A DNA stretch of 57,694 bases from a virus, in the UHGV virus genome UHGV-0135630; one strand, given 5' to 3'. Below, piece by piece: positions 305 to 57,694 of the stretch. How positions within the stretch are numbered: the stretch's first letter is position 1; every line of letters starts with the position of its first letter. The position numbers and the translations under genes were made by a program. A model generated the notes under the pieces. It was not told the origin of the DNA. It ran no database searches and worked only from the letters and a program-made list of their open reading frames with translations.

Positions 305-1408
305 ATGAAAAATAGCTTTGACAGAGCACGCGCAGCGGAGAACACCTCAAAAGAGGCGATTGAGTATCTCGAAAGAGCATCTCAAATGCAGGCCGTTATG
401 ATCTCGCAGGTTAGCAATGACATGAGATTCTCAGACGCATTCATGTTATTCACTCGCTTATCTCTGCTGATAACAAGACGTCGACCAGAGATCGCTGTTC
501 ATTGTATTTTGATACATGTTTTGCCGCACATTGCAGATATAAAAGTAAGTGACATTAATAGGTTCATGGTGAACCAACTGGTCAACCCACTAATACTGGA
601 TGGCAAAATTGTTATGGGCCGCCGCGTTTTCTCTCTGATGAAGCAGTTCCTTAGCTGGTGTGCCTTCCAGGGGATGATCGACGTATCACCATTAAACGAT
701 ATGTCACTGAATAAAGTTGCCGGTGGCGCAAAGCCAACACCTCGCGAACGGAAGCTGACCGACGCAGAGGTATGGGTGTTCTGGAATATCTGGGACTACT
801 TCAATGTGTGCGCAGGTACAAAATGGGCAGCCAGGCTATGTCTTGTATCCGCAAGACGACCTGATGAAGTACTGCGGGCCAGAAAAAGTGAGTTCAACCT
901 TCAGCGTGGAGTTTGGAATCAAGGCAAGAGGAACAAATCTGCCCGTGAGCATTCGCTGCCTTTAAGCACATTAATGCGCACATGTATTGAAGAGTTGTTC
1001 GAATATGGTAAAGACAGCCAGTGGCTTGTGCCTTCGAATAAAAAAATCGGGAAAGACCTTCCTATGTCTAAAGTGGCAATAGCCCAGGCATTACGTCGTA
1101 TTCTGGAACGACCAGAACTGATGGAGCTTGAGCCATTTACACCCCGAGATTTGCGCCGTACTGCGCGTAGTTACTTCCCAGCATTAGGCATAAGCCAGGA
1201 GGTATCACGTAAAATCATGAACCACAGTCTTGAGGGGATAGATCGGGTCTACGACCGGCACGATTATATGGACGAGATGCGAGACGCCTTAGAAAGTTTC
1301 TCGACGTACATCGCATCAATCGTAGAGCAACCCGATTTAGACGAAATTGACCACAAATTTAAGGGAGATCGTCTATCAACAGAGCTTATTCGTGTAAATT
1401 TTTCATAG
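305..1408 (+). CDS. int: tyrosine recombinase / integrase (P4-like family), apparently lacking the N-terminal arm-binding domain
   Basis: 367 aa; C-terminal RDLRRTARSYF and NHSLEGIDRVYDRHDY resemble catalytic R-H-R-Y boxes; core-binding-like region upstream. Confidence 0.7.
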   Translation: MKNSFDRARAAENTSKEAIEYLERASQMQAVMISQVSNDMRFSDAFMLFTRLSLLITRRRPEIAVHCILIHVLPHIADIKVSDINRFMVNQLVNPLILDGKIVMGRRVFSLMKQFLSWCAFQGMIDVSPLNDMSLNKVAGGAKPTPRERKLTDAEVWVFWNIWDYFNVCAGTKWAARLCLVSARRPDEVLRARKSEFNLQRGVWNQGKRNKSAREHSLPLSTLMRTCIEELFEYGKDSQWLVPSNKKIGKDLPMSKVAIAQALRRILERPELMELEPFTPRDLRRTARSYFPALGISQEVSRKIMNHSLEGIDRVYDRHDYMDEMRDALESFSTYIASIVEQPDLDEIDHKFKGDRLSTELIRVNFS

Positions 1409-8900: not shown

Positions 8901-9490
8901 TCATCATTGACGCTGTTAAAGCATCACGTCCGTTCGAAATGAATCCTAAGCGTTCTGCCGAAATCAACGTACTCATGACACGTATGGCGGCTGAAATGGG
9001 CTTGGGTGAGGAGTTGATACGCCCGACTATTGGTATTAAACCCAAAATCATGATCATTCTGGACAATGCGAACGGCAATGACGCTCGTACCGGCTACTTC
9101 ATGGAGAACGGATACGACGACTTTAAGGCAAAACTACTGACAGTTGGAGATCTGCGCATGGGCGATCTTTATGTCACGGGTGTTTGTAAGAAGGTTAAGG
9201 ACAAAGAGAAAGACTATACCAAAGACGAGATAGGCCAGTTCACAGACTTTATGCGGGAAGAAATTAATCTTGTACGACCAACCTACATTTTGACGTGTGG
9301 TAGTCGTTCAACCGCACTATTTAACAATAAGAGTAAACCATCAGATCTGATTGGTCGTAAGGAGTACTTCCCAGAGCTTGATGCAACCGTCTTCTACGGA
9401 TTTAACCCGAATATCCTGTACTTCCGACCGGAAGAAGGAGAGCGACTGGAGGCCATTCTGGCTGATATCGCGGAGACAATAAATAAGTAA
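5972..9490 (+). CDS. dnaE: DNA polymerase III alpha subunit-like replicative polymerase (PHP domain + Pol III alpha core)
   Basis: 1172 aa; GFCGYFLMVRDL...GPGRGSSAGSLVAWCIGITNVDP and FERFINPERLDLPDADLDF are DnaE hallmarks. Confidence 0.85.
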   Translation: MKALMVRTDFSLGESALKAENAVKIAREAGYTAVISADSMNIASVIPLQRAAGDDMAVICGVKLNIVDDPTYEHRAKLAKESMRCMESLERGRNYSFTALIKNEQGYRDICELMTAANTREQFYFVPRLSLEQLVSTYAKGNIILLTSDIGSVFQRNDFAKIISTLITAGGKDNFYSVVYPHPTPFYDQINVRAMKVASALKIEPVAFYPAYYESIDDADIKDIAHMVTNNIKIDQPHRLRIPHQRDNAVNGRRHLLEALKAFSVRMDVPVTAAMASTTQDTIIDSCTWRWHELPPALPKMADDEPATLMKLAVAGLRKRLTTKEFGYTPPASENRVYVERLKYEMDTLTRLGFCGYFLMVRDLMNHSRETGIPVGPGRGSSAGSLVAWCIGITNVDPIRHGLLFERFINPERLDLPDADLDFSQARRHEVIEYLNERYGEDYVAGIPNFTYLGAASALRDTARIYGVESADMAVSKELKNAEDDSLPLEELREQLASLDKYATKYPDAFNAACKLQSLMRGFGRHAAGMIVAGVPLTERTPVERRGDARCIAFDKRYCEAMGLIKLDVLGLATLDLLDSAKRYIKENTGEDINLDAISLEDRKVLDGFAAGYTQGVFQLESGPMRKLLKDLGGGIEPMSFKTVVATTALFRPGPIQSGMLDDYVSVAKGFMTPESLHPVLDELTAETNGVILYQEQTMNATRLLAGFTMAEADAVRSAIGKKNMEKMKSMGEKFIVQAQAGWIDVELEDGTTQRIHRAEHFKCEDGTLKTVEEALEHGAKLPINAVRVTASHPGLSEMKAKEIWTAFEKNGAYQFNKSHSVAYSLISYQSMWLKTHYPAEFFAAALTILGEDKHQGLVKDALTYGIRVLPPDVNVSSNRIEIRTLEDGSQALYAPFSAVKGCSENGCQAIMRAREKVGGKFESVAQFDEAVEKRACNSRVRESLHKVGAFASIEPGSLPATDPERLRDQAELMGNLIIDAVKASRPFEMNPKRSAEINVLMTRMAAEMGLGEELIRPTIGIKPKIMIILDNANGNDARTGYFMENGYDDFKAKLLTVGDLRMGDLYVTGVCKKVKDKEKDYTKDEIGQFTDFMREEINLVRPTYILTCGSRSTALFNNKSKPSDLIGRKEYFPELDATVFYGFNPNILYFRPEEGERLEAILADIAETINK

Positions 9491-9496
9491 TAAAGA

Positions 9497-9520
9497 AAAC
9501 CCGCCTGTTGGCGGGTTTAT
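9497..9520 (+). terminator. rho-independent terminator after the polymerase gene
   Basis: aaaacccgcctgttggcgggttt hairpin followed by T/A-rich tract. Confidence 0.5.
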
Positions 9521-9793
9521 AAAGAATTATGGCGCTTGTTGAGGAAGTCACTCCTCTTACGCACTTTGTTTTGCCATGCCGGCAGTTAGCTTCTGCCTTT
9601 GACTATTCATGCGGCAACCCCGCATTTCGCCACAATGGGCAATTCACTTTTATGGAATAAACTGGCCGTTGTGTCGATTTAATTAGCATGGCCTTACCAT
9701 GCTAATTTATTCAACTTGTACAATCCTACAAATCTATCCACTCAGGCTTACACCGTCTTCGTTATTGTAGAAATGAGGATCATCAGCGTTGAA

Positions 9794-10009
9794 TCAGCTT
9801 AGAGCAACGACATTTGCTGCTGCTGGGCCTTTAGCCCCATTCTCGATAGAGAATTCGACCTGCTGGCCTTCTTCCAAAGTGCGGAAATTATTACTCTGAA
9901 TTGCCGAAAAATGTACAAAAACATCTTTACTGCCATCAGCAGGAGAAATAAAGCCAAAGCCTTTATCAGAGTTAAACCATTTTACTAAACCAGTCATTTT
10001 ATTAGACAT
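9794..10009 (-). CDS. cspA: cold-shock protein, CspA family
   Basis: [37 protein letters not shown] is near-identical in pattern to E. coli CspA; start moved to the internal Met of the 103 aa ORF. Confidence 0.85.
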
Positions 10010-10338
10010 AGATATTACCTTCTTAATTTTGTGAGCCACATAGTGCGGCGAGAATTTGATCTGTATAGATTGGGACTTACTTAGGCACTTAAGGAGGAGA
10101 CTCACGAAGAAGGGAAATCAGAAGATAACACTGAACTGAGACTGCTTTACTAAAACTGCTTACATAAGGTCTGTCTTGCAAACCAACGATGCTATTAACG
10201 CATACCCCTTCTTTTCATGCAACCTTTATTTTTCAAAGATAACTAATTTTTGTCACCATTGGTTTAGTAAACGTTAACGAACCAGACGATGCCAGACACC
10301 ATTACAGAGAACAGATGCCCGCCAATTGGCGGGCATCA

Positions 10339-10902
10339 TTATGCGCATTTCGCAATATCTTTGCGGCGTTTAATCAGTTTCTCCGCAATTTGCTCTATTT
10401 CGTTGAAATCTTTCGAGACGCTGTTTCGAAGCGCCAGATTCCATTTACTCAAAGTTCGGGCATTTTGGACAATTTGATCGCCCTCTTTAAGTCGTCCGTT
10501 ATTCATGAGCCATTCAGCCACATCAGCCCAATCCCAGAGAGGAGACTGGCCTTTTATGCGTTGTACAGGGCAAGGGAAGTCGCCGCTTCCGCGCTTACCG
10601 TCTTTGAGCAACGCCACTGCCTGGCGAGACAGGTCTGTCAGTTCCGCGATATCGCTTAAGCCCACAAGAGCCGAGTCGACGGATTCAACAATTGCACCGA
10701 TACCGGCTGATTCAATATTGTCGACCGCAGATGCGATAGCTGCATCAAGTGATTGTGCTTCGCGGTCAAATTCTACATAGACGGAGTTTCCATATGCGCA
10801 AATTAGCGCATCGTCACAGCCGTTTTGGTACAGCGCGTCTTCCAGTCCTTCCGTCTCATACGATACGCCTGAGAGCGTCAGAGTGAAGTTATAAAGCGCC
10901 AT
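10339..10902 (-). CDS. hypothetical protein (possible C-terminal DNA-binding region)
   Basis: Start at internal Met with AAAGGA RBS; no confident family recognised. Confidence 0.45.
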   Translation of the reverse strand: MALYNFTLTLSGVSYETEGLEDALYQNGCDDALICAYGNSVYVEFDREAQSLDAAIASAVDNIESAGIGAIVESVDSALVGLSDIAELTDLSRQAVALLKDGKRGSGDFPCPVQRIKGQSPLWDWADVAEWLMNNGRLKEGDQIVQNARTLSKWNLALRNSVSKDFNEIEQIAEKLIKRRKDIAKCA

Positions 10903-10962
10903 AGTTTTCCTTTGAAGATAGTTGGACAGTTTCTGCAAAAGGCGGCTAATGCCGCCTTGAAA

Positions 10963-11187
10963 TCATTTACAACGATCAACCATTCGTTTGATCTGTTTGG
11001 CATGGTTTTCGGGATTACCCGGAGTCGACCATACGCTCATTTGGTGAGTTTTGTGTTCACCTTCTGGATTACCGCATCGCAGTCTGCAAAAACAATGTGC
11101 AGCACCACCAGCTGCTACCCAGATCCAGCCTTTACTTAATGCATAGTCAATGGCTGCTTGAATATGCTTATTCGGATGTTGCTTCAT
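10963..11187 (-). CDS. hypothetical small Cys/His-containing protein
   Basis: 74 aa; GGAGG RBS; HCFCRLRC...H cluster; co-oriented with and 24 nt upstream of the previous gene. Confidence 0.45.
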   Translation of the reverse strand: MKQHPNKHIQAAIDYALSKGWIWVAAGGAAHCFCRLRCGNPEGEHKTHQMSVWSTPGNPENHAKQIKRMVDRCK

Positions 11188-11440
11188 TCGCCTCCGATAA
11201 TAGTATTCTATTCACAGTGTTGACATCTGTCAACGGCGACTGAATTTCATCCGTTCATGCCACACCCCATCCATCTCATGTATGTGACCTAAAGATGGTC
11301 AGCACAGCTTACCAAAATAAGACAACTAATTATCTTCGGTGATCTCAATATTTTCCCCTGAACAAAGTTGACATGACGCCATAAACCCGTTCTCTGTTTG
11401 ATATAATTGATACAGATTTTATAAGTAGGAACCTATTAGA

Positions 11441-11872
11441 GTGAACACTGATATTTTTTCTAAAATCATGGCCGATCTGGAGTTCGACCGCGACAACCTT
11501 GAGGAAGTATGGCGTAAACAGCCACGGCTTTTAATGGAGTATGGGTCAAAACTAGCGCAGGCAGATCGAGATGTCGCAGAGGCAAAACTTAACCTTGAAG
11601 CTGTTGAAGCAAAGCTATACGACACAGAGCGTAAGAACTTGAGTATGAACGGCATTAAGTTCAACGAGTCTGTACTGGACGCTAAGGTTAAAACAAACCC
11701 ACAGTATCTGTCTAAACGGCAGAAGTTGGATGAAGCACGGCACATCGCAGACATATACAAACATGCTGTCGCCGCCTTTTCGCATCGCCGAGACATGATC
11801 GTTCAGGCGTCAAAGATGGCCATCGTTGAATTAGAGCGATTAGGCTCTGAACGCTTTATTACTCCCCGTTGA
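11441..11872 (+). CDS. hypothetical protein, possibly UvsY-like recombination mediator
   Basis: 143 aa helical protein next to SSB and RecA-like genes; weak resemblance to T4 UvsY from memory only. Confidence 0.3.
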   Translation: MNTDIFSKIMADLEFDRDNLEEVWRKQPRLLMEYGSKLAQADRDVAEAKLNLEAVEAKLYDTERKNLSMNGIKFNESVLDAKVKTNPQYLSKRQKLDEARHIADIYKHAVAAFSHRRDMIVQASKMAIVELERLGSERFITPR

Positions 11873-17891: not shown

Positions 17892-18103
17892 TGGCATTAA
17901 CACTGGCAGGTCTGGAAATCGAGAAAACAAGCGGCTACTGGCGTGCTAAGGGTTTCAAGCAGCCTGGCATTCTTGAGCGTCTGGAACGTGAAGATGGGTA
18001 TATCGTCCACCAGCGGCGTGAATGGCGTATGTACGATCCAGAAACAGGAAAACTGACTACAAAAGCCGGAACACTTTGGGGTCTGTTAAAGAAAATACAC
18101 TAA
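17891..18103 (+). CDS. hypothetical protein
   Basis: 70 aa; start overlaps previous stop. Confidence 0.4.
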   Translation: MALTLAGLEIEKTSGYWRAKGFKQPGILERLEREDGYIVHQRREWRMYDPETGKLTTKAGTLWGLLKKIH

Positions 18104-18150
18104 ATGCAAACTGACTGCGGCACGTTCCGCAGTCATATTTCATAGTCGTC

Positions 18151-18682
18151 ACCGCTGACAGCATACACAATCAACTACCGCTGATAGCATATCGAGAGTC
18201 TATCTCACCGCTCACAGCATACTTTACTCGATTTTTTACCGCTGACAGCATACTTAAGACATTGCATGAATAATGTGTACCGGTATGGGTATAACCAGAA
18301 CAAAATTACCGCTGGCAGCATACGAATGTCTGACATATGCCATTAATTACCGCTGATAGCATATCCAAACAAAAATTCCTCAATAAAACACCGCTGACAG
18401 CATACGTTCTATCAGGGAGTAGCAGGCAATAAATGCCTTTCACTACAAGCAATCAGCGCAATAGCAATAGAATGTTAGTGAGCGCAAACCTATATGGAAT
18501 GCACTCTTCGAGGTTAGTAACCACTGGGGAGGTATGACAGAGCATTGAGTGGTGATAGATGATTTACCGCTCACAGCATACGTTCATCTCACTATACCGC
18601 TGGTAGCATATCTTTAACCGTTCACAGCATACTTTTCAGAAAAATAGCCGCTGATAGCATACATTTCACCGCTGACAGCATA
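18151..18682. repeat. iteron array, about 12 copies of ACCGCTGACAGCATA (incA-like)
   Basis: Direct 15-bp repeats with minor variants (GATAG, CACAG, GGCAG, GGTAG) at irregular spacing, immediately downstream of repA. Confidence 0.8.
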
Positions 18683-19777
18683 TCAAAGCAGTTTGAGACT
18701 ATTGGAAAGGATCTCAATCATCTTGATATTTTCAGGCGTCAAATTCTGCGAAAGTTCGGTTATCTTGTTGATAATGTTCTGTTTGGCATCAATTTCCCCA
18801 GCTTTCTCATCTGGTTTTTTGGGTTCGATGTCTTCAGGTTTTGGCGGTGCGACTTTGAGTTTTGGATTGCGGCTGTGAATCTGGATATAGATCGACCGCC
18901 CACGCTTAATCTCGCTGTATTCGAGATAGCCCAAATCTTGGAGAGCTTTTAAGCCGTTACGTATAGTCTGATTCTGCGAGCTGACATTCCTGCTACTCAA
19001 ATTGAGTCGCGCACGCAATCGAGCAAGCGATACCGGCGCAGGCTTGGTTGGAAGACTTTCGATGAAGGTGTACAGAGCCTGTGCTGTTTCTTTGCGTGGT
19101 AGCTTATTGATAACCTTTAACTGCAAAAGAACCTTATGGTCAAAGCGATATAGTTCGGCCAGCTTCGGTTCTGCATAGAACACCACCGTATCTTTCTGCT
19201 CGTTGTAGTCCACGCTATTGATGAGGTGCACCATCAGAAGCGAGATCTTGTTAGAGCCGTCGACGTTCTTTTCTTCATACGTTCTCTGGAAAGACAGAGT
19301 TGTACGCATGATCTTCAAAAGACTGTTTGTAAGCCGGTCGCGGAGTGTTTTGCGGATCTGTGACGATGGATAGCCACAAAACTTAGCAAATTTCGTGATG
19401 CTTAACTCGACACGACCGTTAGGTTCGCCGTATTCTGCCAGCGAACGCACAACGCCCACCCACGTTTTGAAATCATGATCCATGTCGAGACGAGGACCGG
19501 TTATCTTGATATCGGAATAGCCTTCAGAACGGGCTACTTCGAGCTGGACAAGCTCCTTTGAAGCATCGATCTCATTTGGCTTGTTACGTTTACTGTATTT
19601 TGTTCCCTTAAGCGTGGGGACGAACAACCCCAGTCGCATCAACGCAATTGGTTGGACTGTATTGTTGCTATTAGGGACAAGTTCCCCTGTGTACAATTCA
19701 AGGGAACCTTCTTCAAAGTTGTCGATGTTATCTTCTACTTCTTTGTTATTTTTACCTTTTTTATTTTTTGTGGACAT
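18683..19777 (-). CDS. repA: replication initiator RepA (P1/RepFIB family)
   Basis: NSNNTVQPIALMRLGLFVP...YSDIKITGPRLDMDHDFKTW...AQALYTFIESLP...IQIHSRNPKLK recalls P1 RepA; start set to internal ATG downstream of the upstream iterons. Confidence 0.85.
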   Translation of the reverse strand: MSTKNKKGKNNKEVEDNIDNFEEGSLELYTGELVPNSNNTVQPIALMRLGLFVPTLKGTKYSKRNKPNEIDASKELVQLEVARSEGYSDIKITGPRLDMDHDFKTWVGVVRSLAEYGEPNGRVELSITKFAKFCGYPSSQIRKTLRDRLTNSLLKIMRTTLSFQRTYEEKNVDGSNKISLLMVHLINSVDYNEQKDTVVFYAEPKLAELYRFDHKVLLQLKVINKLPRKETAQALYTFIESLPTKPAPVSLARLRARLNLSSRNVSSQNQTIRNGLKALQDLGYLEYSEIKRGRSIYIQIHSRNPKLKVAPPKPEDIEPKKPDEKAGEIDAKQNIINKITELSQNLTPENIKMIEILSNSLKLL

Positions 19778-19797
19778 GTGGACACCTTTGTCATTCA

Positions 19798-19898
19798 ACC
19801 GCTGACAGCATACTTGATTTGCCGCTGACAGAATACCAAAAACAGTTGGCAGCATACGGTGAACCGCTGACAGACTATCAATTACCGCTGACAGCATA
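19798..19898. repeat. upstream iteron set, 4-5 copies (incC-like, part of origin)
   Basis: ACCGCTGACAGCATA and variants overlapping the repA promoter region. Confidence 0.7.
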
Positions 19899-19929
19899 CA
19901 TGAACATGACTTCAGACCAGTCGTGGCGC

Positions 19930-43685: not shown

Positions 43686-44065
43686 CGCATAAATCAGCAG
43701 CCGGAGAGCTTCAGAAGGAAGTCGAAAATACTACCGTTCTATTGGACGATATTTTAAACATTCTCGCGCTTCTTGAGGCTGGCGATTGGTCAGAACATTG
43801 CACTAAAACGGAGTTAGGCGGTCGGCTTGAAAGAGAGATTACACGACTGATTAGCGATGCCCAAAATGATTTGTCACCTGAGCATCTCCCCTGCGATGTA
43901 GTTCTTGTGCCAGGGATGAGGATACACGAAGGCGTCAGAACGAAAACATTATTAACCGCATTACAGAGAAGAGCCGAACTAAGCTCGCGGATAAAGTTGA
44001 TGCCATCCAAAATATTTGATGTCGTCAAATTTACGCCATCGCAACATACTGAGAGAGATAAATGA
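43682..44065 (+). CDS. hypothetical protein
   Basis: 127 aa. Confidence 0.45.
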   Translation: MTHKSAAGELQKEVENTTVLLDDILNILALLEAGDWSEHCTKTELGGRLEREITRLISDAQNDLSPEHLPCDVVLVPGMRIHEGVRTKTLLTALQRRAELSSRIKLMPSKIFDVVKFTPSQHTERDK

Positions 44066-44694
44066 GCACGGTAGCGAAAGATCTCACAGAAGATATTCTC
44101 AATGAAATTATTGCTGGTGCAAATACCTCGCTTGAGCAACTTCTTGCGTTAGCACTGAGAGCCGAACGTCGAGACAGAAATCGTTTTTATGAGCGATTAC
44201 CAGGGAAACGGCCAGATAGATCAGATGAAGAAGGTTGCGATATAGACTACATGGAGCCTTCAGAGATTTATCAACTTGGTAAAGATGACGGCTGGAACGC
44301 TTATCACGATGCTGTGATGAAGTTGGATGAAAAAGTTAAACCTCTTTCTCGACCAGTAGATCACGGTTTCCGCGATAACTGCGAATGCTCTAGTTGCCAG
44401 ACTACGGCCCGTATTTGTTCCGAATTAACAGATAAGCCCAGCCTAATCTACGAAGTTAATGTAGGTGGTAATACATGGGTCGAATGCACAAGAGCTGCAT
44501 ACGTAAGAGCAAAAGATAAGGGTGAATTAACCAGAGTTGTTACCCATCACCCAAATAATGAGCTTAAAGCTCACCAGATTCGAGAACTGGTGAACGAGTT
44601 GCGGGATATTGCGGTTACGTACCACGGAACGCAGCAATTGAGGGAGAAGATTGCCAGAGCAGTGAACAACTCAATTAGATCAGAAAGTATGTAG
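44062..44694 (+). CDS. hypothetical protein
   Basis: 210 aa; followed by hairpin ggccccatttgggatggggcc. Confidence 0.5.
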   Translation: MSTVAKDLTEDILNEIIAGANTSLEQLLALALRAERRDRNRFYERLPGKRPDRSDEEGCDIDYMEPSEIYQLGKDDGWNAYHDAVMKLDEKVKPLSRPVDHGFRDNCECSSCQTTARICSELTDKPSLIYEVNVGGNTWVECTRAAYVRAKDKGELTRVVTHHPNNELKAHQIRELVNELRDIAVTYHGTQQLREKIARAVNNSIRSESM

Positions 44695-44744
44695 CCAATA
44701 CGATAAAATGGCCCCATTTGGGATGGGGCCGGTAACAACTAGCG

Positions 44745-44828
44745 TTATGGGCGCTGGTTGACGTACTCAATGATCGCTTCAATAATTGCGAACATCGGCG
44801 GCACGATTTTGAACAGTAAGTTAACCAT
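44745..44828 (-). CDS. candidate small hydrophobic peptide (27 aa), possibly toxin-like
   Basis: Hand translation MVNLLFKIVPPMFAIIEAIIEYVNQRP; GAGG RBS 7 nt upstream; next to SOS-regulated umuD-like locus. Coordinates approximate. Confidence 0.2.
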   Translation of the reverse strand: MVNLLFKIVPPMFAIIEAIIEYVNQRP

Positions 44829-45132
44829 AACAGGCCTCACTTAGTTTTATCGCGCCTAGCTGCAAATACCTTTGAGCTTGCCTTTGCAGTTGCAATATCT
44901 GTAGTCGCCAGATACTTACGGCACGATTTCGAGTTAAGGTAAGGTTTGAGAGTCACCAAAAACCTGGACTTAAATCTTCTTTGAGAACAACGATGTTTAG
45001 TAAATGGTCATTATTACCTGGTATGACCACTCAACGCTTCTTGATGAATCCAGTACATTCGGTTAATCTTAATTCAGTCGCCAGATACTTATGGCTCAGG
45101 AACAGAGACGCAAACTCTGTTTCCTTTTAAAA

Positions 45133-45158
45133 AGCCCAGCCTAGTCAACTGGGCTTTT
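45133..45158 (+). terminator. rho-independent terminator candidate
   Basis: aaagcccagcctagtcaactgggcttttt. Confidence 0.4.
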
Positions 45159-45456
45159 TAACGTCTGTTTTTTAACCCAACACACCCTCAATACTGCAAC
45201 ATCAGTGTCTTGCAACCTAAGATAGTGTCTGTAGGTTCTTCATGCAAGTGCATAACTCAGTGGATAACTCATGAAGGAAAAAGTAGCTTCCGCGCAATTT
45301 AGACCAGACAAGGTCTTCGCAAAAGTCAACGGAAAGAGAAAAATTTGTTAAAAATAACGTTTGTTGTAATTGTATATATTTATGCCTTTCAATAGTTAGC
45401 ATCTTATTAACATCTTTTTTAAGAGACAGAGTTCAAAAATATATAGCTTTAACATA

Positions 45457-45476
45457 TACTGTATGTATATACAGCA
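45457..45476. promoter_or_regulatory. LexA box TACTGTATGTATATACAGCA
   Basis: Near-consensus SOS box (CTGT-N8-ACAG with TA-rich spacer) about 17 bp upstream of the umuD-like ATG. Confidence 0.7.
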
Positions 45477-45492
45477 TTAAGAGGCGAGTATT

Positions 45493-45882
45493 ATGGGCTT
45501 CCCTTCTCCTGCGGCGGATTATGCTGAGAGCCGTATTTCTCTTGATCAGCACATAATTAGACATCCTTCAGCTACCTACTTCATGAGAGCAACTGATAGC
45601 CATCAGCGTGAGGGAATATTGCAGGGTGCATTGCTGGTGGTCGATTCCTCACTTACCCCGGTTGATGGTTCTCTGCTTGTGTGCGCTATGGAGGGGGAAT
45701 ATCGCGTAAAAAGATACCGGAAGTATCCACGTCAGCATCTGGAGGATTTAAGAACCGGTAAGAAGGAAACATTGCCAAAGGATGATGATGGATGCACGGG
45801 CAGCAATGCCGTGTTTGGAGTGATCACTCACATTATCAACGACGCAAGAAGTGGCGAATTTGATGATTGTCCTGTGATGTAG
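45493..45882 (+). CDS. umuD: UmuD-like S24 peptidase (orphan, no umuC partner)
   Basis: 129 aa; GFPSPAADY N-terminus, Ser in ATDSHQ, Lys in EYRVKR, C-terminal FGVITHIIN; LexA box upstream. Confidence 0.7.
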   Translation: MGFPSPAADYAESRISLDQHIIRHPSATYFMRATDSHQREGILQGALLVVDSSLTPVDGSLLVCAMEGEYRVKRYRKYPRQHLEDLRTGKKETLPKDDDGCTGSNAVFGVITHIINDARSGEFDDCPVM

Positions 45883-45892
45883 GAGAGCTGAT

Positions 45893-45917
45893 TAGGCGGT
45901 GCAATGCACCGCCTTTT
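45893..45917. terminator. bidirectional terminator hairpin between umuD-like and apbC
   Basis: aggcggtgcaatgcaccgcctttttat. Confidence 0.5.
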
Positions 45918-45919
45918 TA

Positions 45920-47020
45920 TCACACTGCGCGGAATGCGATTTCGCCAGGTATTACTTCGCCTTGCCAATACATTTGTGCGGCAACGCGATCTGCGAGGTC
46001 ACGGTAAATAGCAGTAAATTCGCTGTCTGGGCGACTAATAACGGTTGGTGTTCCGTTATCCAGATCTTCACGAAGTGAGATATGAAGAGGCATTTGGCCT
46101 AACAACTGCGTGTTGTATTTCTCTGCCAGCTTCTCTGCACCACCGGTGCCAAAAATTGGCTCGTGATGACCGCAGTTACTGCAAATATGCACACTCATGT
46201 TTTCGACGATACCCAGTACCGGCACTTCGACTTTTTCGAACATCACAATGCCTTTCTTCGCATCGATCAGCGCGATATCTTGCGGCGTAGTTACCACCAC
46301 AGCACCCGTTACAGGAATGTTCTGCGCCAGCGTCAACTGAATATCACCAGTGCCAGGCGGCATATCGAGAACGAGATAGTCCAGATCAGGCCACAATGTT
46401 TCCTGCAACATCTGCATCAGCGCCTTGCTAGCCATCGGTCCGCGCCACACCATTGCATTGTCGTCGGTGACCAGATAACCAATAGAGTTGGTTGCCAGGC
46501 CATGAGACATGATAGGTGCCATGTGAGTACCGTCCGGTGAGGTTGGACGTTGGTTTTCCGCGCCCAGCATGGTTGGAATTGATGGCCCGTAGATATCGGC
46601 ATCCAAAATACCAACTTTCGCACCTTCAGCAGCCAACGCCAGTGCCAGGTTTACCGCCGTTGAGGATTTACCCACGCCGCCCTTGCCTGAGCTTACGGCG
46701 ATAATATTCTTAACGCCATTAATGCCTGGTTGGTTTTTGACGCGCTTAAGCGTGGCAATGTTGTACGACAGCTTCCAGTCAATAGCCTTTGCGCCAGTGA
46801 TACGGAGCAGATCACCACTACATTGCTCTTTCAGGTCTTCAAAAGGCTTATTCCACACAAAAGGCATGATCAGTTCGACATGCAGTGTGTCATCCATCAA
46901 CGCAACATGGTGTAACGCTTTAAGCGTTGTCAGGTTGTGTTTCAGGGTTGGGTGCTGAAAATTAGCCAGCGTACCGGCTACCATTGCTCTCAGGGCATCC
47001 GGCGATTTGGACTCGCTCAT
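45920..47020 (-). CDS. apbC: iron-sulfur cluster carrier ATPase ApbC/Mrp
   Basis: 366 aa; Walker A SGKGGVGKSS; CxxC motif; collinear with E. coli Mrp as recalled. Confidence 0.9.
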   Translation of the reverse strand: MSESKSPDALRAMVAGTLANFQHPTLKHNLTTLKALHHVALMDDTLHVELIMPFVWNKPFEDLKEQCSGDLLRITGAKAIDWKLSYNIATLKRVKNQPGINGVKNIIAVSSGKGGVGKSSTAVNLALALAAEGAKVGILDADIYGPSIPTMLGAENQRPTSPDGTHMAPIMSHGLATNSIGYLVTDDNAMVWRGPMASKALMQMLQETLWPDLDYLVLDMPPGTGDIQLTLAQNIPVTGAVVVTTPQDIALIDAKKGIVMFEKVEVPVLGIVENMSVHICSNCGHHEPIFGTGGAEKLAEKYNTQLLGQMPLHISLREDLDNGTPTVISRPDSEFTAIYRDLADRVAAQMYWQGEVIPGEIAFRAV

Positions 47021-47177
47021 CCCGTCTCCTTTATTTTAATTTGCGCAATTGTCGCCTTGTAGTGTACTCCAGCTACGACATTTAATCATTTATGAGAAAT
47101 GCTGTTATCACATGGCAGACATAAGACCATTTTGTTACTATCAAGCCCCTTTTCACTACAAAGAAGTAATGCCTACT

Positions 47178-49211
47178 ATGACCCAAGTCGCGAAGAAAAT
47201 TCTGGTGACGTGCGCACTGCCGTACGCTAACGGCTCAATCCACCTCGGCCATATGCTGGAGCACATCCAGGCTGATGTCTGGGTTCGTTACCAGCGAATG
47301 CGCGGCCACGAGGTTAATTTCATCTGTGCCGACGATGCCCACGGTACGCCGATCATGCTGAAAGCCCAGCAGCTTGGTATTACCCCGGAGCAGATGATTG
47401 GCGAAATGAGTCAGGAGCATCAGACTGATTTCGCAGGCTTTAATATCAGCTACGACAACTATCACTCGACGCACAGCGAAGAGAACCGTCAGTTGTCTGA
47501 GCTTATCTATACTCGCCTGAAAGAGAACGGTTTTATTAAAAACCGCACCATCTCTCAGTTGTACGACCCGGAAAAAGGTATGTTCCTGCCGGATCGTTTT
47601 GTGAAAGGCACCTGCCCGAAATGTAAAGCGCCAGATCAATACGGCGATAACTGTGAAGTCTGCGGCGCGACCTACAGCCCGACTGAACTGATTGAACCGA
47701 AATCGGTGGTTTCTGGCGCTACGCCGGTAATGCGTGATTCTGAACACTTCTTCTTTGATCTGCCCTCTTTCAGCGAAATGTTGCAGGCATGGACCCGCAG
47801 CGGTGCGTTGCAGGAGCAGGTGGCAAACAAAATGCAGGAGTGGTTTGAATCCGGCTTGCAACAGTGGGATATCTCCCGCGATGCGCCTTACTTCGGTTTT
47901 GAAATTCCGAACGCGCCGGGTAAATATTTCTACGTCTGGCTGGACGCGCCGATTGGCTACATGGGTTCCTTCAAGAATCTGTGCGACAAGCGCGGCGACA
48001 CTACCAGCTTCGATGAATACTGGAAGAAAGACTCTACCGCTGAGCTGTACCACTTCATCGGTAAAGATATCGTTTACTTCCACAGCCTGTTCTGGCCAGC
48101 AATGCTGGAAGGCAGCAACTTCCGCAAGCCGACTAACCTGTTTGTTCATGGCTATGTGACAGTGAACGGCGCGAAGATGTCCAAGTCTCGTGGCACCTTC
48201 ATTAAGGCCAGCACCTGGCTGAATCATTTTGACGCTGACAGCCTGCGTTACTACTACACTGCGAAACTCTCTTCGCGTATTGATGATATCGACCTGAATC
48301 TGGAAGATTTCGTTCAGCGCGTAAATGCCGATATCGTCAACAAAGTAGTGAACCTGGCCTCCCGTAACGCTGGCTTTATCAACAAGCGTTTTGACGGCGT
48401 GTTGGCAAGCGAACTGGCTGCCCCTGAACTGTACAAAACCTTTACTGATGCCGCTGAAGTTATTGGCGAAGCGTGGGAAAGCCGCGAATTTGGTAAAGCG
48501 ATCCGTGAAATCATGGCGCTGGCTGATCTGGCTAACCGCTATGTCGATGAACAGGCTCCGTGGGTGGTGGCGAAGCAGGAAGGACGCGATGCCGATCTGC
48601 AGGCGATTTGCTCTATGGGCATTAACCTGTTCCGCGTGCTGATGACTTACCTGAAACCGGTACTGCCGAAACTGACAGAACGTGCGGAAGCATTCCTGAA
48701 TACGGAACTGACCTGGGATGGCATCCAGCAACCGCTGTTGGGCCACAAAGTGAATCCGTTCAAGGCACTGTATAACCGTATCGATATGAAACAGGTGGAA
48801 GCACTGGTGGAAGCATCCAAAGAAGAAGTGAAAGCAACTGCCGCGCCAGTTACTGGCCCGCTGGCTGATGATCCGATTCAGGAAACCATCACCTTTGACG
48901 ACTTCGCCAAAGTTGACCTGCGCGTGGCGCTGATTGAAAACGCAGAGTTTGTTGAGGGTTCTGACAAGCTGCTGCGCCTGACGCTGGATCTCGGTGGCGA
49001 AAAACGCAATGTCTTCTCCGGCATTCGTTCTGCTTACCCAGCCCCACAGGCACTGATTGGTCGTCACACCATTATGGTGGCTAACCTGGCTCCGCGTAAA
49101 ATGCGCTTCGGTATCTCCGAAGGCATGGTGATGGCTGCTGGCCCTGGCGGGAAAGATATCTTCCTGTTAAGCCCGGATGCTGGTGCTAAACCTGGCCACC
49201 AGGTTAAGTAA
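47178..49211 (+). CDS. metG: methionyl-tRNA synthetase
   Basis: Begins [26 protein letters not shown] (HIGH-type motif), KMSKS present, C-terminal tRNA-binding domain; start moved to the internal Met of the 720 aa ORF. Confidence 0.95.
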
Positions 49212-49233
49212 TTAAACAACCTCTGTTCGCAAT

Positions 49234-49613: not shown

Positions 49614-49906
49614 ATATTACTCAATCCTACCAGGTGGCATTGATCAGTTCATCTCATACATCAGAGGAAGATGCTCGCCGATTCATGATCGCAAGCAATG
49701 AGCTGGATTGGATTTCACAAATTGAGTACGGTTGCATAGTTCACGCCGGGTTACAGGATGATGACTGGAAAGATAACTTGCGTCGATATGGTATATCCGA
49801 GGGCGCGATTGCGAACATTCAGAAGGTACTTGATGCAGGCTTTGACTCTGTACATTTTGATTGTGGCGCACCGGTCGTTGAAGGGCTTGAGTGCTGGCAA
49901 TGGTAA
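49607..49906 (+). CDS. hypothetical protein
   Basis: 99 aa overlapping previous stop. Confidence 0.4.
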   Translation: MLNITQSYQVALISSSHTSEEDARRFMIASNELDWISQIEYGCIVHAGLQDDDWKDNLRRYGISEGAIANIQKVLDAGFDSVHFDCGAPVVEGLECWQW

Positions 49907-55177: not shown

Positions 55178-55197
55178 GATTAAGCTCCTTAAAAAAA

Positions 55198-55401
55198 TTA
55201 AACAGAATTTTGAAGTTTTCCGATTAATGCGCTTAAACGTAAGTATTCACGTTTGCGCTTGCAATCTCGCTTGCTGTTAAGCAAATCAGAAAACGTAAAA
55301 TTTAATTGGTCGCGTTGCGCGATCAAATCATCGATTAATTCCAGTTTATAAGCGCGATACTTTGCGCGATATTCCGCGCGGATCTTGTCATAGCTGACCA
55401 T
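55198..55401 (-). CDS. hypothetical protein
   Basis: 67 aa from internal ATG after AAGGAG RBS. Confidence 0.4.
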   Translation of the reverse strand: MVSYDKIRAEYRAKYRAYKLELIDDLIAQRDQLNFTFSDLLNSKRDCKRKREYLRLSALIGKLQNSV

Positions 55402-55449
55402 CTTTAAAGCTCCTTTAAAGCGCCCATAGTGGGCGCTTGATTCCATTAA

Positions 55450-56109
55450 TTACGCTTTAAAAGCATCAGCTAAATAATTGTAGAAATCATTCTTGATAAA
55501 GCGATATTGCTGTGTACCAGCTTTGGCGCTTCCCATTCCTTTGACTTTCTCAACAAGTCCGAGACGTTCGCAAAGATTGATTAGCTGGTTAGCTTGAGTA
55601 TAGCCAGCGTCCAATTTAATTTCGCACGCTTTTTTAGCTTCATTCATTAAATCGAAAACAGCGCCATTGGTGAACGTGTCGATCTCGTCGTTAATCATAT
55701 CGATTAAAGCGAATACACGAGATCCTGACATATCAGCGACGGAATAAACACATTTACCAGCTTTAATGGATTTAACCAGATAAACCAGTTTTTCCAGTGA
55801 ATAACTATTAGTCATTGCATCACGGAAAAATACTTCTGGCGCTTGTTTGCTTGCTTTAATCGCATAGTAGAAAACAGAGCATAATTTTTCGTCTTCTACT
55901 GCGTTTACGACGTTGTTGATGAAGTAAGCAAGTTTAGTGGTCGCAGCTTGCATATTTGCTTTGTCTGCTTTGGTGTGCGTACCATTTTTATAATGTTCGT
56001 TATATGTTTGAGTTGCCAGATCTGCTTTTTCGCGCAGCTCGTCGGATACAATAGATGCAGCTTCAATGATGGACTTTTTAGAAATGATAATGTTAGCCAT
56101 GATGGACAT
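55450..56109 (-). CDS. hypothetical protein
   Basis: 219 aa. Confidence 0.5.
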   Translation of the reverse strand: MSIMANIIISKKSIIEAASIVSDELREKADLATQTYNEHYKNGTHTKADKANMQAATTKLAYFINNVVNAVEDEKLCSVFYYAIKASKQAPEVFFRDAMTNSYSLEKLVYLVKSIKAGKCVYSVADMSGSRVFALIDMINDEIDTFTNGAVFDLMNEAKKACEIKLDAGYTQANQLINLCERLGLVEKVKGMGSAKAGTQQYRFIKNDFYNYLADAFKA

Positions 56110-56360
56110 CCTTACGAAAAATTAAAATGAATTTATTTTTTACTGTCGTTAGCTAGCTCGCTTTCGACGAGTTCAATTATCGATACGTGAAAAAAGATTG
56201 CAAGTATTTTTTTTAAATTTTTTGCAGGGGTGAAAGTCCTAGAAATAAAAGCGAGATCGTCGAAGGTGTTCCCTAAATAAATAATCAATTCGGGCCTTTA
56301 ACCTTATATATTTATACAGAGTGGCGTTGAAAGAGTTTTAAATGAATGGCATGTAAAATA

Positions 56361-56384
56361 ATAACCGGGCTTAGCCGGTTATTA
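56361..56384 (-). terminator. hairpin terminator candidate
   Basis: ataaccgggcttagccggttat. Confidence 0.4.
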
Positions 56385-56395
56385 CCCTTATAGAT

Positions 56396-56920
56396 TTAAA
56401 ATGGAAGGATTCGTTCGACCCAATCGAAGAAAACAAGTATTTTTCTGCCGTCTTCTAACTTAAGAGTGACCTGGCAAGCATCAACGCCTCTTGACACCCC
56501 TTCAATTTCACGACCGTCTGCCATGTAGACCCTTATAGATTGGTCGTTTTGATAAGCCTTGCGACATATCGCAAAAAAGTCACGGCGTGATGGCTGATTG
56601 TCAACATAGTCTGGATGTATTGTTAGCCTACCTTTGAACTCGCGAGCAATGCCATCGATTACACCTGATTCAATTGTGCTAATGCGCTCAAGTGGGAGTC
56701 TTATACGATTTTCTTTATCATATGGAAGCGGGCATAAATCTAGCTTATTGCGGGAAGGCATTGTCCCCTGAACGTACATGCAAAACACCTGACCGTCTTC
56801 AAGCGTGACTCTTACAGGAATGTTGTTCTTCCGCCAGAACATAAGTATGTTTTCAGCATGTTCGTAGTCTCGCGGCCAGACTTCAGCCGGTATGCCGTAG
56901 GTGATGTCCAATGTTCTCAT
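56396..56920 (-). CDS. hypothetical protein
   Basis: 174 aa; start overlaps upstream gene stop by 4 nt. Confidence 0.5.
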   Translation of the reverse strand: MRTLDITYGIPAEVWPRDYEHAENILMFWRKNNIPVRVTLEDGQVFCMYVQGTMPSRNKLDLCPLPYDKENRIRLPLERISTIESGVIDGIAREFKGRLTIHPDYVDNQPSRRDFFAICRKAYQNDQSIRVYMADGREIEGVSRGVDACQVTLKLEDGRKILVFFDWVERILPF

Positions 56921-57516
56921 TCTGATACTCTTAGAAGTGTTTTCAGCAACCCAAATTTAAATTCTTTGTTACCAACGACAAAGAAGGGAACCTCAACATA
57001 GATTTTTTTATCGACGGATTTAGAGTTAGCTGTTTTCTGTATGTCACGAACGATACGTTTTGAGATATTTTCATCGATAAACAATACCTTTCCACTTGTA
57101 TTCCCTTCAGCCTTGGCGTAAGTAACGATAGGCTCTTCATTGCCAACCCTAATGTTTACTTGGCAACCTGTTGTAGCCATTTCATCACAGTAAAGTGTGC
57201 CGTCTTGAACTTCTAAAACAATTCCAGATGGCTTCATGGCTTCGTCAGAGCTTACATTAACGTTTTCTGGTACAGCGGTCCCGTTAATTTGCAACCGTAA
57301 TCTTTCTTTTCCTCCATTAAGTATTGTTTCTTCTGCGTTGTCTGAGAATCTGAACCAAACTGGCTGATTCAGACCTCGTGATTTGTATTCTACTACGTCT
57401 TCGGAGGTAAACATGCTGTACGTTTTTTGCATGTCAGAGACGAAATCTGATAATGCGTTGGCGGAAAACGTCGGGAGGCATATACAAGCAAGGAGTAACG
57501 AAAGTTTCATTTTCAT
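56917..57516 (-). CDS. secreted/periplasmic protein of unknown function
   Basis: N-terminal signal peptide MKMKLSLLLACICLPTFSANA; start set to internal Met. Confidence 0.5.
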   Translation of the reverse strand: MKMKLSLLLACICLPTFSANALSDFVSDMQKTYSMFTSEDVVEYKSRGLNQPVWFRFSDNAEETILNGGKERLRLQINGTAVPENVNVSSDEAMKPSGIVLEVQDGTLYCDEMATTGCQVNIRVGNEEPIVTYAKAEGNTSGKVLFIDENISKRIVRDIQKTANSKSVDKKIYVEVPFFVVGNKEFKFGLLKTLLRVSE

Positions 57517-57531
57517 ATCATGATAATCCAA

Positions 57532-57694
57532 TTATTTAACATCACACTTTCTAAGTTTTTCTATTTGTTCTAATTTTTCATGATCATCATTTAGATTTCC
57601 TTCGACTATCTCCGTTTCAAGTTTGCTGATTAGCATGTTAAGTGCGTTGTAGTTATTGCATTTTACTTTGTAGGCGTAGTATGACCTTGTCCCT
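57532..57694 (-). CDS. hypothetical protein, partial (5-prime end beyond window)
   Basis: Open minus-strand frame from the window edge to a TAA near 57532; C-terminus ...LRKCDVK. Confidence 0.3.
   Translation of the reverse strand, partial: GTRSYYAYKVKCNNYNALNMLISKLETEIVEGNLNDDHEKLEQIEKLRKCDVK

Follow-up and report, generated by a model that had tools for sequence, protein, structure and literature searches.

The HumD family was characterised in bacteriophage P1, where, in the work of McLenigan from 1999, HumD is said to form a dimer and to bind both UmuC and RecA filaments. P1 HumD reportedly also complements in a recA430 lexA(Def) background, with strong complementation only at high copy number. 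The gene is LexA-regulated (PMC9603915), and P1 humD proved non-essential for lytic growth in a CRISPRi screen (PMC10695390), which leaves its benefit to the phage unproven. Other UmuD homologs that are borne on mobile elements and regulated by LexA are those of mucAB, impAB, rumAB and samAB, which reside on plasmids or ICEs (PMC7092418).

The gene considered here lies in a stretch of viral DNA of 57,694 nucleotides (UHGV virus genome UHGV-0135630), the whole of which we call the window. Its identity, truncation, control by LexA and orphan status are all established, and the finding is therefore already known: a curated equivalog model exists for humD, and the exact protein is present in RefSeq. 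Given that the family was characterised in P1 in 1999, the value for discovery is small. What the locus does provide is a clean example of a cassette, composed of a LexA box and humD, that moves between unrelated phage-plasmid lineages, from P1-type to SSU5-type.

The gene and the element that carries it

The open reading frame of interest begins with ATG and is listed with its neighbouring features in Table 1. The initial annotation had described its product as a UmuD-like S24 peptidase, and a profile search agrees: the score with Pfam Peptidase_S24 (PF00717) is 37 bits, above the gathering threshold of 23.3 (E 3.1e-9). Among solved structures the best match is UmuD' (1umu_A, E 2.7e-22), with query residue 2 placed on UmuD' residue 1. 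A more specific assignment is provided by the NCBIfam equivalog model NF051876, named ‘HumD family translesion DNA polymerase’, whose cutoff of 120 bits the protein clears with 217.8 bits (E 3.4e-65) in an alignment that covers the whole protein (residues 1-129) and the whole profile (positions 1-129 of 129). The UmuD subfamily model (NCBIfam NF007621, PRK10276) yields 87.7 bits, below its cutoff of 110, and the LexA repressor model TIGR00498 yields 26.2 bits, below its cutoff of 110.95, in an alignment restricted to the region of the C-terminal domain (profile positions 91-166). An AlphaFold2 model built from a 24-sequence, HumD-only alignment was too poor to use (mean pLDDT 49.5, pTM 0.42) and was discarded, and for this reason we rely instead on the sequence match to solved UmuD'.

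Table 1. Positions of the humD gene, its putative control elements and adjoining features in the window
Feature	Position	Strand	Details and basis
P1-family cassette (upfO/DnaA-box-like stretch, promoter, LexA box, humD)	45240..45881	+	blastn against P1
Predicted sigma-70 promoter-like element, TTCAAA-17 nt-TATACT	45432..45460	+	consensus scan, 9 of 12 matches
LexA (SOS) box, TACTGTATGTATATACAGCA	45457-45476		18 of 20 consensus positions; sequence match
Shine-Dalgarno-like AAGAGG	45479..45484	+	8 nt before the humD ATG; read from the sequence
humD coding sequence	45493..45882	+	129 aa, UmuD'-like; NF051876 match and identity to P1 HumD
Intrinsic-terminator-like hairpin, AGGCGGTGCAATGCACCGCCT, followed by TTTTT	45894..45919		9-bp stem with 7 GC pairs; hairpin and TTTTT at 45894-45914
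apbC ORF	45920..47020	-	convergent with humD; metG next

The initial annotation had mentioned P1 humD as an analogue. Alignment of the product with P1 HumD (YP_006569.1), a protein of the same length, gives 90% identity at the amino acid level and 84% at the nucleotide level, and alignment with UmuD gives 43%. Together with the full-length equivalog match, these values identify the gene as humD, evidently an ortholog of the P1 gene. The protein is also 100% identical to RefSeq WP_089619671.1, which is encoded by the E. coli plasmid pMTY18780-3. A protein search returned 556 clusters, many of which are already named as members of the HumD family, from plasmids and chromosomes of Escherichia, Citrobacter, Enterobacter, Klebsiella, Kluyvera and Salmonella, with hundreds of clusters preserving the gene undamaged and at full length. 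Relatives occur in 90 phage records, including those of P1, P7, D6, RCS47, SJ46, N15, phiKO2, HK140, HK639 and BTP1.

The window is evidently part of an SSU5/pHCM2-type siphovirus phage-plasmid of E. coli, approximately 110 kb in length. It is colinear with pMTY18780-3 at 96-99% identity and matches the phage records Cyrano, CMS-2020a and PhiR41_1 (108-109 kb). The E. coli members of this type have been named the pSLy3 group (PMC11652158), although our placement of the window is by type and not by group. The replicon encodes RepA and ParB-family partition functions, siphovirus head and tail proteins, a replication set (dnaE, a DnaB-like helicase, a 3'-5' exonuclease and a ligase), and nrdAB, thymidylate synthase, DHFR and tRNAs. 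Of 5,426 complete E. coli genomes, 201 have the backbone nrdA gene on a plasmid and none has it on a chromosome, and the humD-apbC junction is present at a coverage of at least 80% in 107 genomes. We also considered that the locus might be a chromosomal prophage lying beside apbC-metG. This possibility was rejected because the close matches are all plasmids or phages of ~100-115 kb and because of the colinearity with pMTY18780-3.

Several other observations concern the composition of this element. Three segments (9456-11462, 18103-19911 and 55194-57694) show little (86.6%) or no similarity to pMTY18780-3, and we therefore regard them as variable regions of the phage-plasmid backbone. The apbC (mrp)-metG segment at 45924-49212 and chromosomal mrp-metG of E. 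coli K-12 share 88.3% identity over 3,298 bp, and the match is bounded by the stop codons of the two genes, mrp and metG. By this homology, apbC-metG is a captured chromosomal housekeeping segment, with which the mobile element carries a second gene for methionyl-tRNA synthetase. Near metG, pMTY18780-3 carries a frameshifted IS26 transposase gene at a site corresponding to about position 49674 of the window.

The LexA box and the origin of the cassette

A near-perfect LexA box just upstream of the gene had been reported in the initial annotation, and this description holds. With its CTGT...ACAG core intact, the site TACTGTATGTATATACAGCA departs from the consensus TACTGTATATATATACAGTA in two positions, and its 3' end lies 16 nt before the humD ATG. 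It is the sole site with three or fewer mismatches in the 57.7-kb window, and no such match was obtained in 100 dinucleotide-preserving shuffles. By the same measure the box of E. coli umuDC has two mismatches and that of P1 humD has three. The predicted -10 hexamer overlaps the left half of the box, and the records of P1 and P7 annotate a LexA site at the same position. We aligned six humD upstream regions, taken from the window, P1, Enterobacter soli, a MAG contig and two sister phage-plasmids. Their flanks diverge freely, whereas TACTGT...ACAG occurs unchanged in all six and at the same alignment position.

A broader sample points to a control mechanism that is shared by much of the family. 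We sampled 40 HumD-family loci, with each species represented by a single genome, and in 24 of them the 150 bp upstream of the gene contain an SOS-box-like 20-mer with five or fewer mismatches. These sites are situated 14-45 nt from the ATG, mostly at 14-20 nt, and the CTGT...ACAG core is intact in 19 of the loci. The remaining 16 of the 40 loci have no such 20-mer within 150 bp upstream. As predicted from these sites, LexA control extends to many but not all members of the HumD family.

A second LexA-box-like site, TACTGTTTACTTATACAGTG, is present at positions 259-278. It has four mismatches to the 20-mer consensus with an intact CTGT-N8-ACAG core, and it adjoins a promoter-like TTGATC-17-TAATAT (region 231-305). 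A tyrosine recombinase ORF (305..1408, plus strand, 367 aa) has its ATG 27 nt downstream of the site, which may place this recombinase of the element under SOS control.

The boundaries of the humD cassette can be read from its homology to P1. This homology begins at position 45447, just before the LexA box, and ends at 45881, at the humD stop codon, and over the interval the LexA box and humD of the two phages are 83.6% identical by blastn. Further upstream, the 104 bp at 45240-45343 are 75% identical by blastn to the upfO/DnaA-box region of P1, and positions 45240-45494 are 81% identical to a remnant in P7 (91680-91917) in which only the right half of a LexA box survives, beside IS903. The pattern suggests that P1-family phages once carried or exchanged the variant of the cassette that is found in the window. 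A tblastn search with P1 Hot, Lxr, Phd and Doc gave no significant match in the window, and of the neighbourhood of P1 humD, which comprises hot, lxr, phd, doc and pdcA, no gene was found in the window, which retains only a weak upfO-like stretch. On this homology, positions 45240-45881 are P1-family DNA that lacks hot and lxr and is inserted in an unrelated SSU5/pHCM2-type backbone.

On the other side of the gene, the initial annotation had placed a terminator and apbC directly downstream, and we find the same arrangement. The terminator-like hairpin and its T-run sit between the convergent humD and apbC genes, within a junction of 42 bp that extends from the end of the P1 homology (45881) to the start of the homology to E. 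coli mrp (45924).

The DNA upstream of humD has features of its own. Approximately 800 bp (44695-45492) are annotated as non-coding, and an Rfam scan of positions 44000-47200, with E values up to 1, revealed no RNA family. The stretch varies among sister phage-plasmids: from about 44672 to 45447-45492, CMS-2020a (strain SCU-175) and PhiR41_1 are divergent, and an additional ORF of 174 aa is present there in PhiR41_1.

Given this mosaic history, it seems appropriate to ask whether humD is simply a decaying and functionless hitchhiker, with a LexA-box match that is no more than an accidental palindrome. Its position at a mosaic junction beside captured chromosomal genes, near IS26 in the relative, would fit, and the dispensability of P1 humD for lytic growth would likewise suit such a fate. 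However, humD is under strong purifying selection, as the comparison with P1 humD gives a dN of 0.049 and a dS of 0.75 (dN/dS 0.065), and its preservation at full length in so many clusters is not what decay would be expected to leave. A chance palindrome would also fit poorly with a box core that stays invariant while its flanks diverge, or with shuffled sequences that never yield such a box. We consider this explanation very improbable.

The protein product and its proposed function

The most telling feature of the product is where it begins. Met1-Gly2-Phe3-Pro4 aligns with Cys24-Gly25-Phe26-Pro27 of UmuD, and an in-frame TAA at 45478-45480, four codons upstream of the ATG, rules out a longer N-terminus. 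Both the N-terminal tail of 24 residues that is typical of UmuD and the Cys/Ala-Gly self-cleavage site are absent. The same M-G-F start, with a single residue before the equivalent of Gly25, is found in 112 of 118 aligned sequences, which comprise 116 HumD family representatives, the window protein and UmuD. From this alignment, the humD product is made directly in the ‘cleaved’ UmuD' form.

This bears on the proposal, made in the initial annotation, that the usual context of the nucleophile is replaced by Ser-His-Gln and that autocleavage behaviour may differ as a result. The residues are indeed present (D35-S36-H37-Q38), and Ser36 and Lys73 align with the catalytic Ser60 and Lys97 of UmuD. 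Together with the Pfam S24 match, these positions could be taken to indicate a self-cleaving UmuD-type peptidase whose RecA-dependent autocleavage is altered by the unusual context. However, a protein that starts at the equivalent of Gly25, with no tail, no cleavage site and a stop codon upstream, has nothing to cleave, so that autocleavage is not at issue, and its score with the UmuD subfamily model falls below the cutoff. Among the window protein and the 116 family representatives, 58 have Ser at the aligned nucleophile position, 56 have Thr and 3 have Ala, a mixture which suggests that this position is no longer held by selection for catalysis; the aligned Lys is kept in 114 of these 117 sequences. 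Because His follows the nucleophile position in 103 of the 117, the Ser-His context is a hallmark of the HumD family and not a peculiarity of the window gene, and the Gln that comes after Ser-His, although rare (1 of 117), carries little weight. A self-cleaving peptidase is thus hardly credible here. In the initial annotation as a whole, the comparison with P1 humD has been strengthened and the autocleavage idea has not survived, while the phage-plasmid context and the pre-truncated start had been overlooked.

The gene is also an orphan, as had been claimed from the start. With E. coli K-12 UmuC as the query, the lowest tblastn E value in the window was 4.6, and no match was obtained in the complete 112,965-bp relative pMTY18780-3, the annotation of which lists no Y-family polymerase. 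The window humD is not in an operon with umuC, and no UmuC homolog lies closer than 4 kb to the gene in any of the 40 family loci. Only one UmuC was encountered, next to a distant (41% identical) and ordinary umuD in a Chitinophagaceae MAG.

Given these characteristics, we think it highly probable that humD is a LexA-repressed accessory cassette whose SOS-induced, UmuD'-like product partners with UmuC and RecA of the host for translesion synthesis. In undamaged cells, host LexA bound to the box that overlaps the -10 region would repress humD. DNA damage would activate RecA, LexA would then cleave itself, and humD would be transcribed. Since HumD is made without the N-terminal tail, it would bypass the slow RecA-mediated cleavage that normally delays the activation of UmuD. 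By homology to P1 HumD, the protein would then dimerise and, with the chromosomally encoded UmuC and RecA of the host, make up a Pol V-like translesion polymerase, which might help the large extrachromosomal genome, or the host, to replicate past lesions. We infer the binding of LexA from the sequence of the site, and we likewise infer dimerisation, the partnership with UmuC and RecA and the benefit to the element. The UmuD'-like function of this particular allele is suggested by its close identity to P1 HumD.

Because the element encodes its own DnaE and 3'-5' exonuclease, a partner other than host UmuC is possible. HumD might act mainly as a modulator rather than as a subunit of Pol V, either by binding these two proteins of the element or by forming heterodimers with host UmuD, in which case the timing of replication or of a checkpoint after damage would be retuned without recourse to translesion synthesis by way of UmuC. 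Three subunits of Pol III (alpha, epsilon and beta) are bound by UmuD and UmuD', and the phage-plasmid itself has dnaE, a DnaB-like helicase, the 3'-5' exonuclease, a ligase and nrdAB. In P1 and D6, humD lies close to hot, which encodes a homolog of the theta subunit of Pol III, and the family has a strictly conserved C-terminal tail, EFDDCPV, that is absent from UmuD. However, hot is absent from the cassette in the window, and the experimental work on the family, all of it on P1 HumD, points to a UmuD'-like function with UmuC. We therefore consider a mainly modulatory role to be unlikely.

The tail itself deserves attention. Residues 117-129, (N)DARSGEFDDCPVM, are nearly invariant in the HumD family and have no counterpart in UmuD. 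One conceivable, if quite unlikely, use of its GEFDDCPV portion would be to dock on the replisome of the element (DnaE and the 3'-5' exonuclease) or on host UmuD, with HumD not serving host Pol V. If true, HumD would be an SOS-triggered switch of replication or fidelity for an extrachromosomal genome, and the drift among Ser, Thr and Ala at the former nucleophile would mark the complete loss of protease function.

The locus also illustrates how common pre-activated UmuD' genes are among the temperate phages of enterobacteria, which bears on the ways in which SOS mutagenesis in clinical E. coli may be raised by mobile elements.

Comparison with described UmuD-like systems

Like mucAB, impAB, rumAB and samAB, the window humD is a mobile-element-borne gene of a UmuD homolog with predicted LexA regulation. 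The proteins of those systems, however, are of the full-length, cleavable MucA or RumA type, and their genes are always paired with the gene of a cognate Y-family polymerase, whereas the window gene is pre-truncated and stands unpaired.

E. coli UmuD and UmuD' (PDB 1UMU, 1AY9, 1I4V and 8GMT) belong to the same S24 fold family as the window protein, at ~43% identity. Both UmuD and, as its sequence predicts, window HumD are under LexA control, with boxes of equal quality. The window protein corresponds in extent to UmuD', and residues 1-24 of UmuD and the Cys24-Gly25 site are missing from it. It further departs from UmuD in having His in place of Met61 and an extra conserved C-terminal tail of 11-13 residues.

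Closer relatives are found among temperate phages and linear phage-plasmids. N15 gp26, phiKO2 gp23 and the UmuD-like proteins of the lambdoid or P22-like phages HK140, HK639 and BTP1 are 62-68% identical to window HumD. Their genes are likewise orphans of the pre-truncated HumD type, but they are more divergent from the window gene than is P1 humD and reside in other phage backbones.

The closest of the described systems is P1 itself. The two HumD proteins share the start MGFPSPAADY, the Ser-His context and the C-terminal GEFDDCPV, and in both phages a LexA box is located 16-19 nt upstream of the ATG of a gene that has no umuC partner. What differs is the setting. The P1 replicon is that of a myovirus, and humD there is flanked by hot and lxr upstream and by phd-doc downstream, genes that are absent from the window locus, whereas the window replicon is an SSU5/pHCM2-type siphovirus phage-plasmid in which humD abuts a terminator and the captured apbC-metG segment. 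The LexA box of the window humD is also nearer to the consensus than that of P1 humD.
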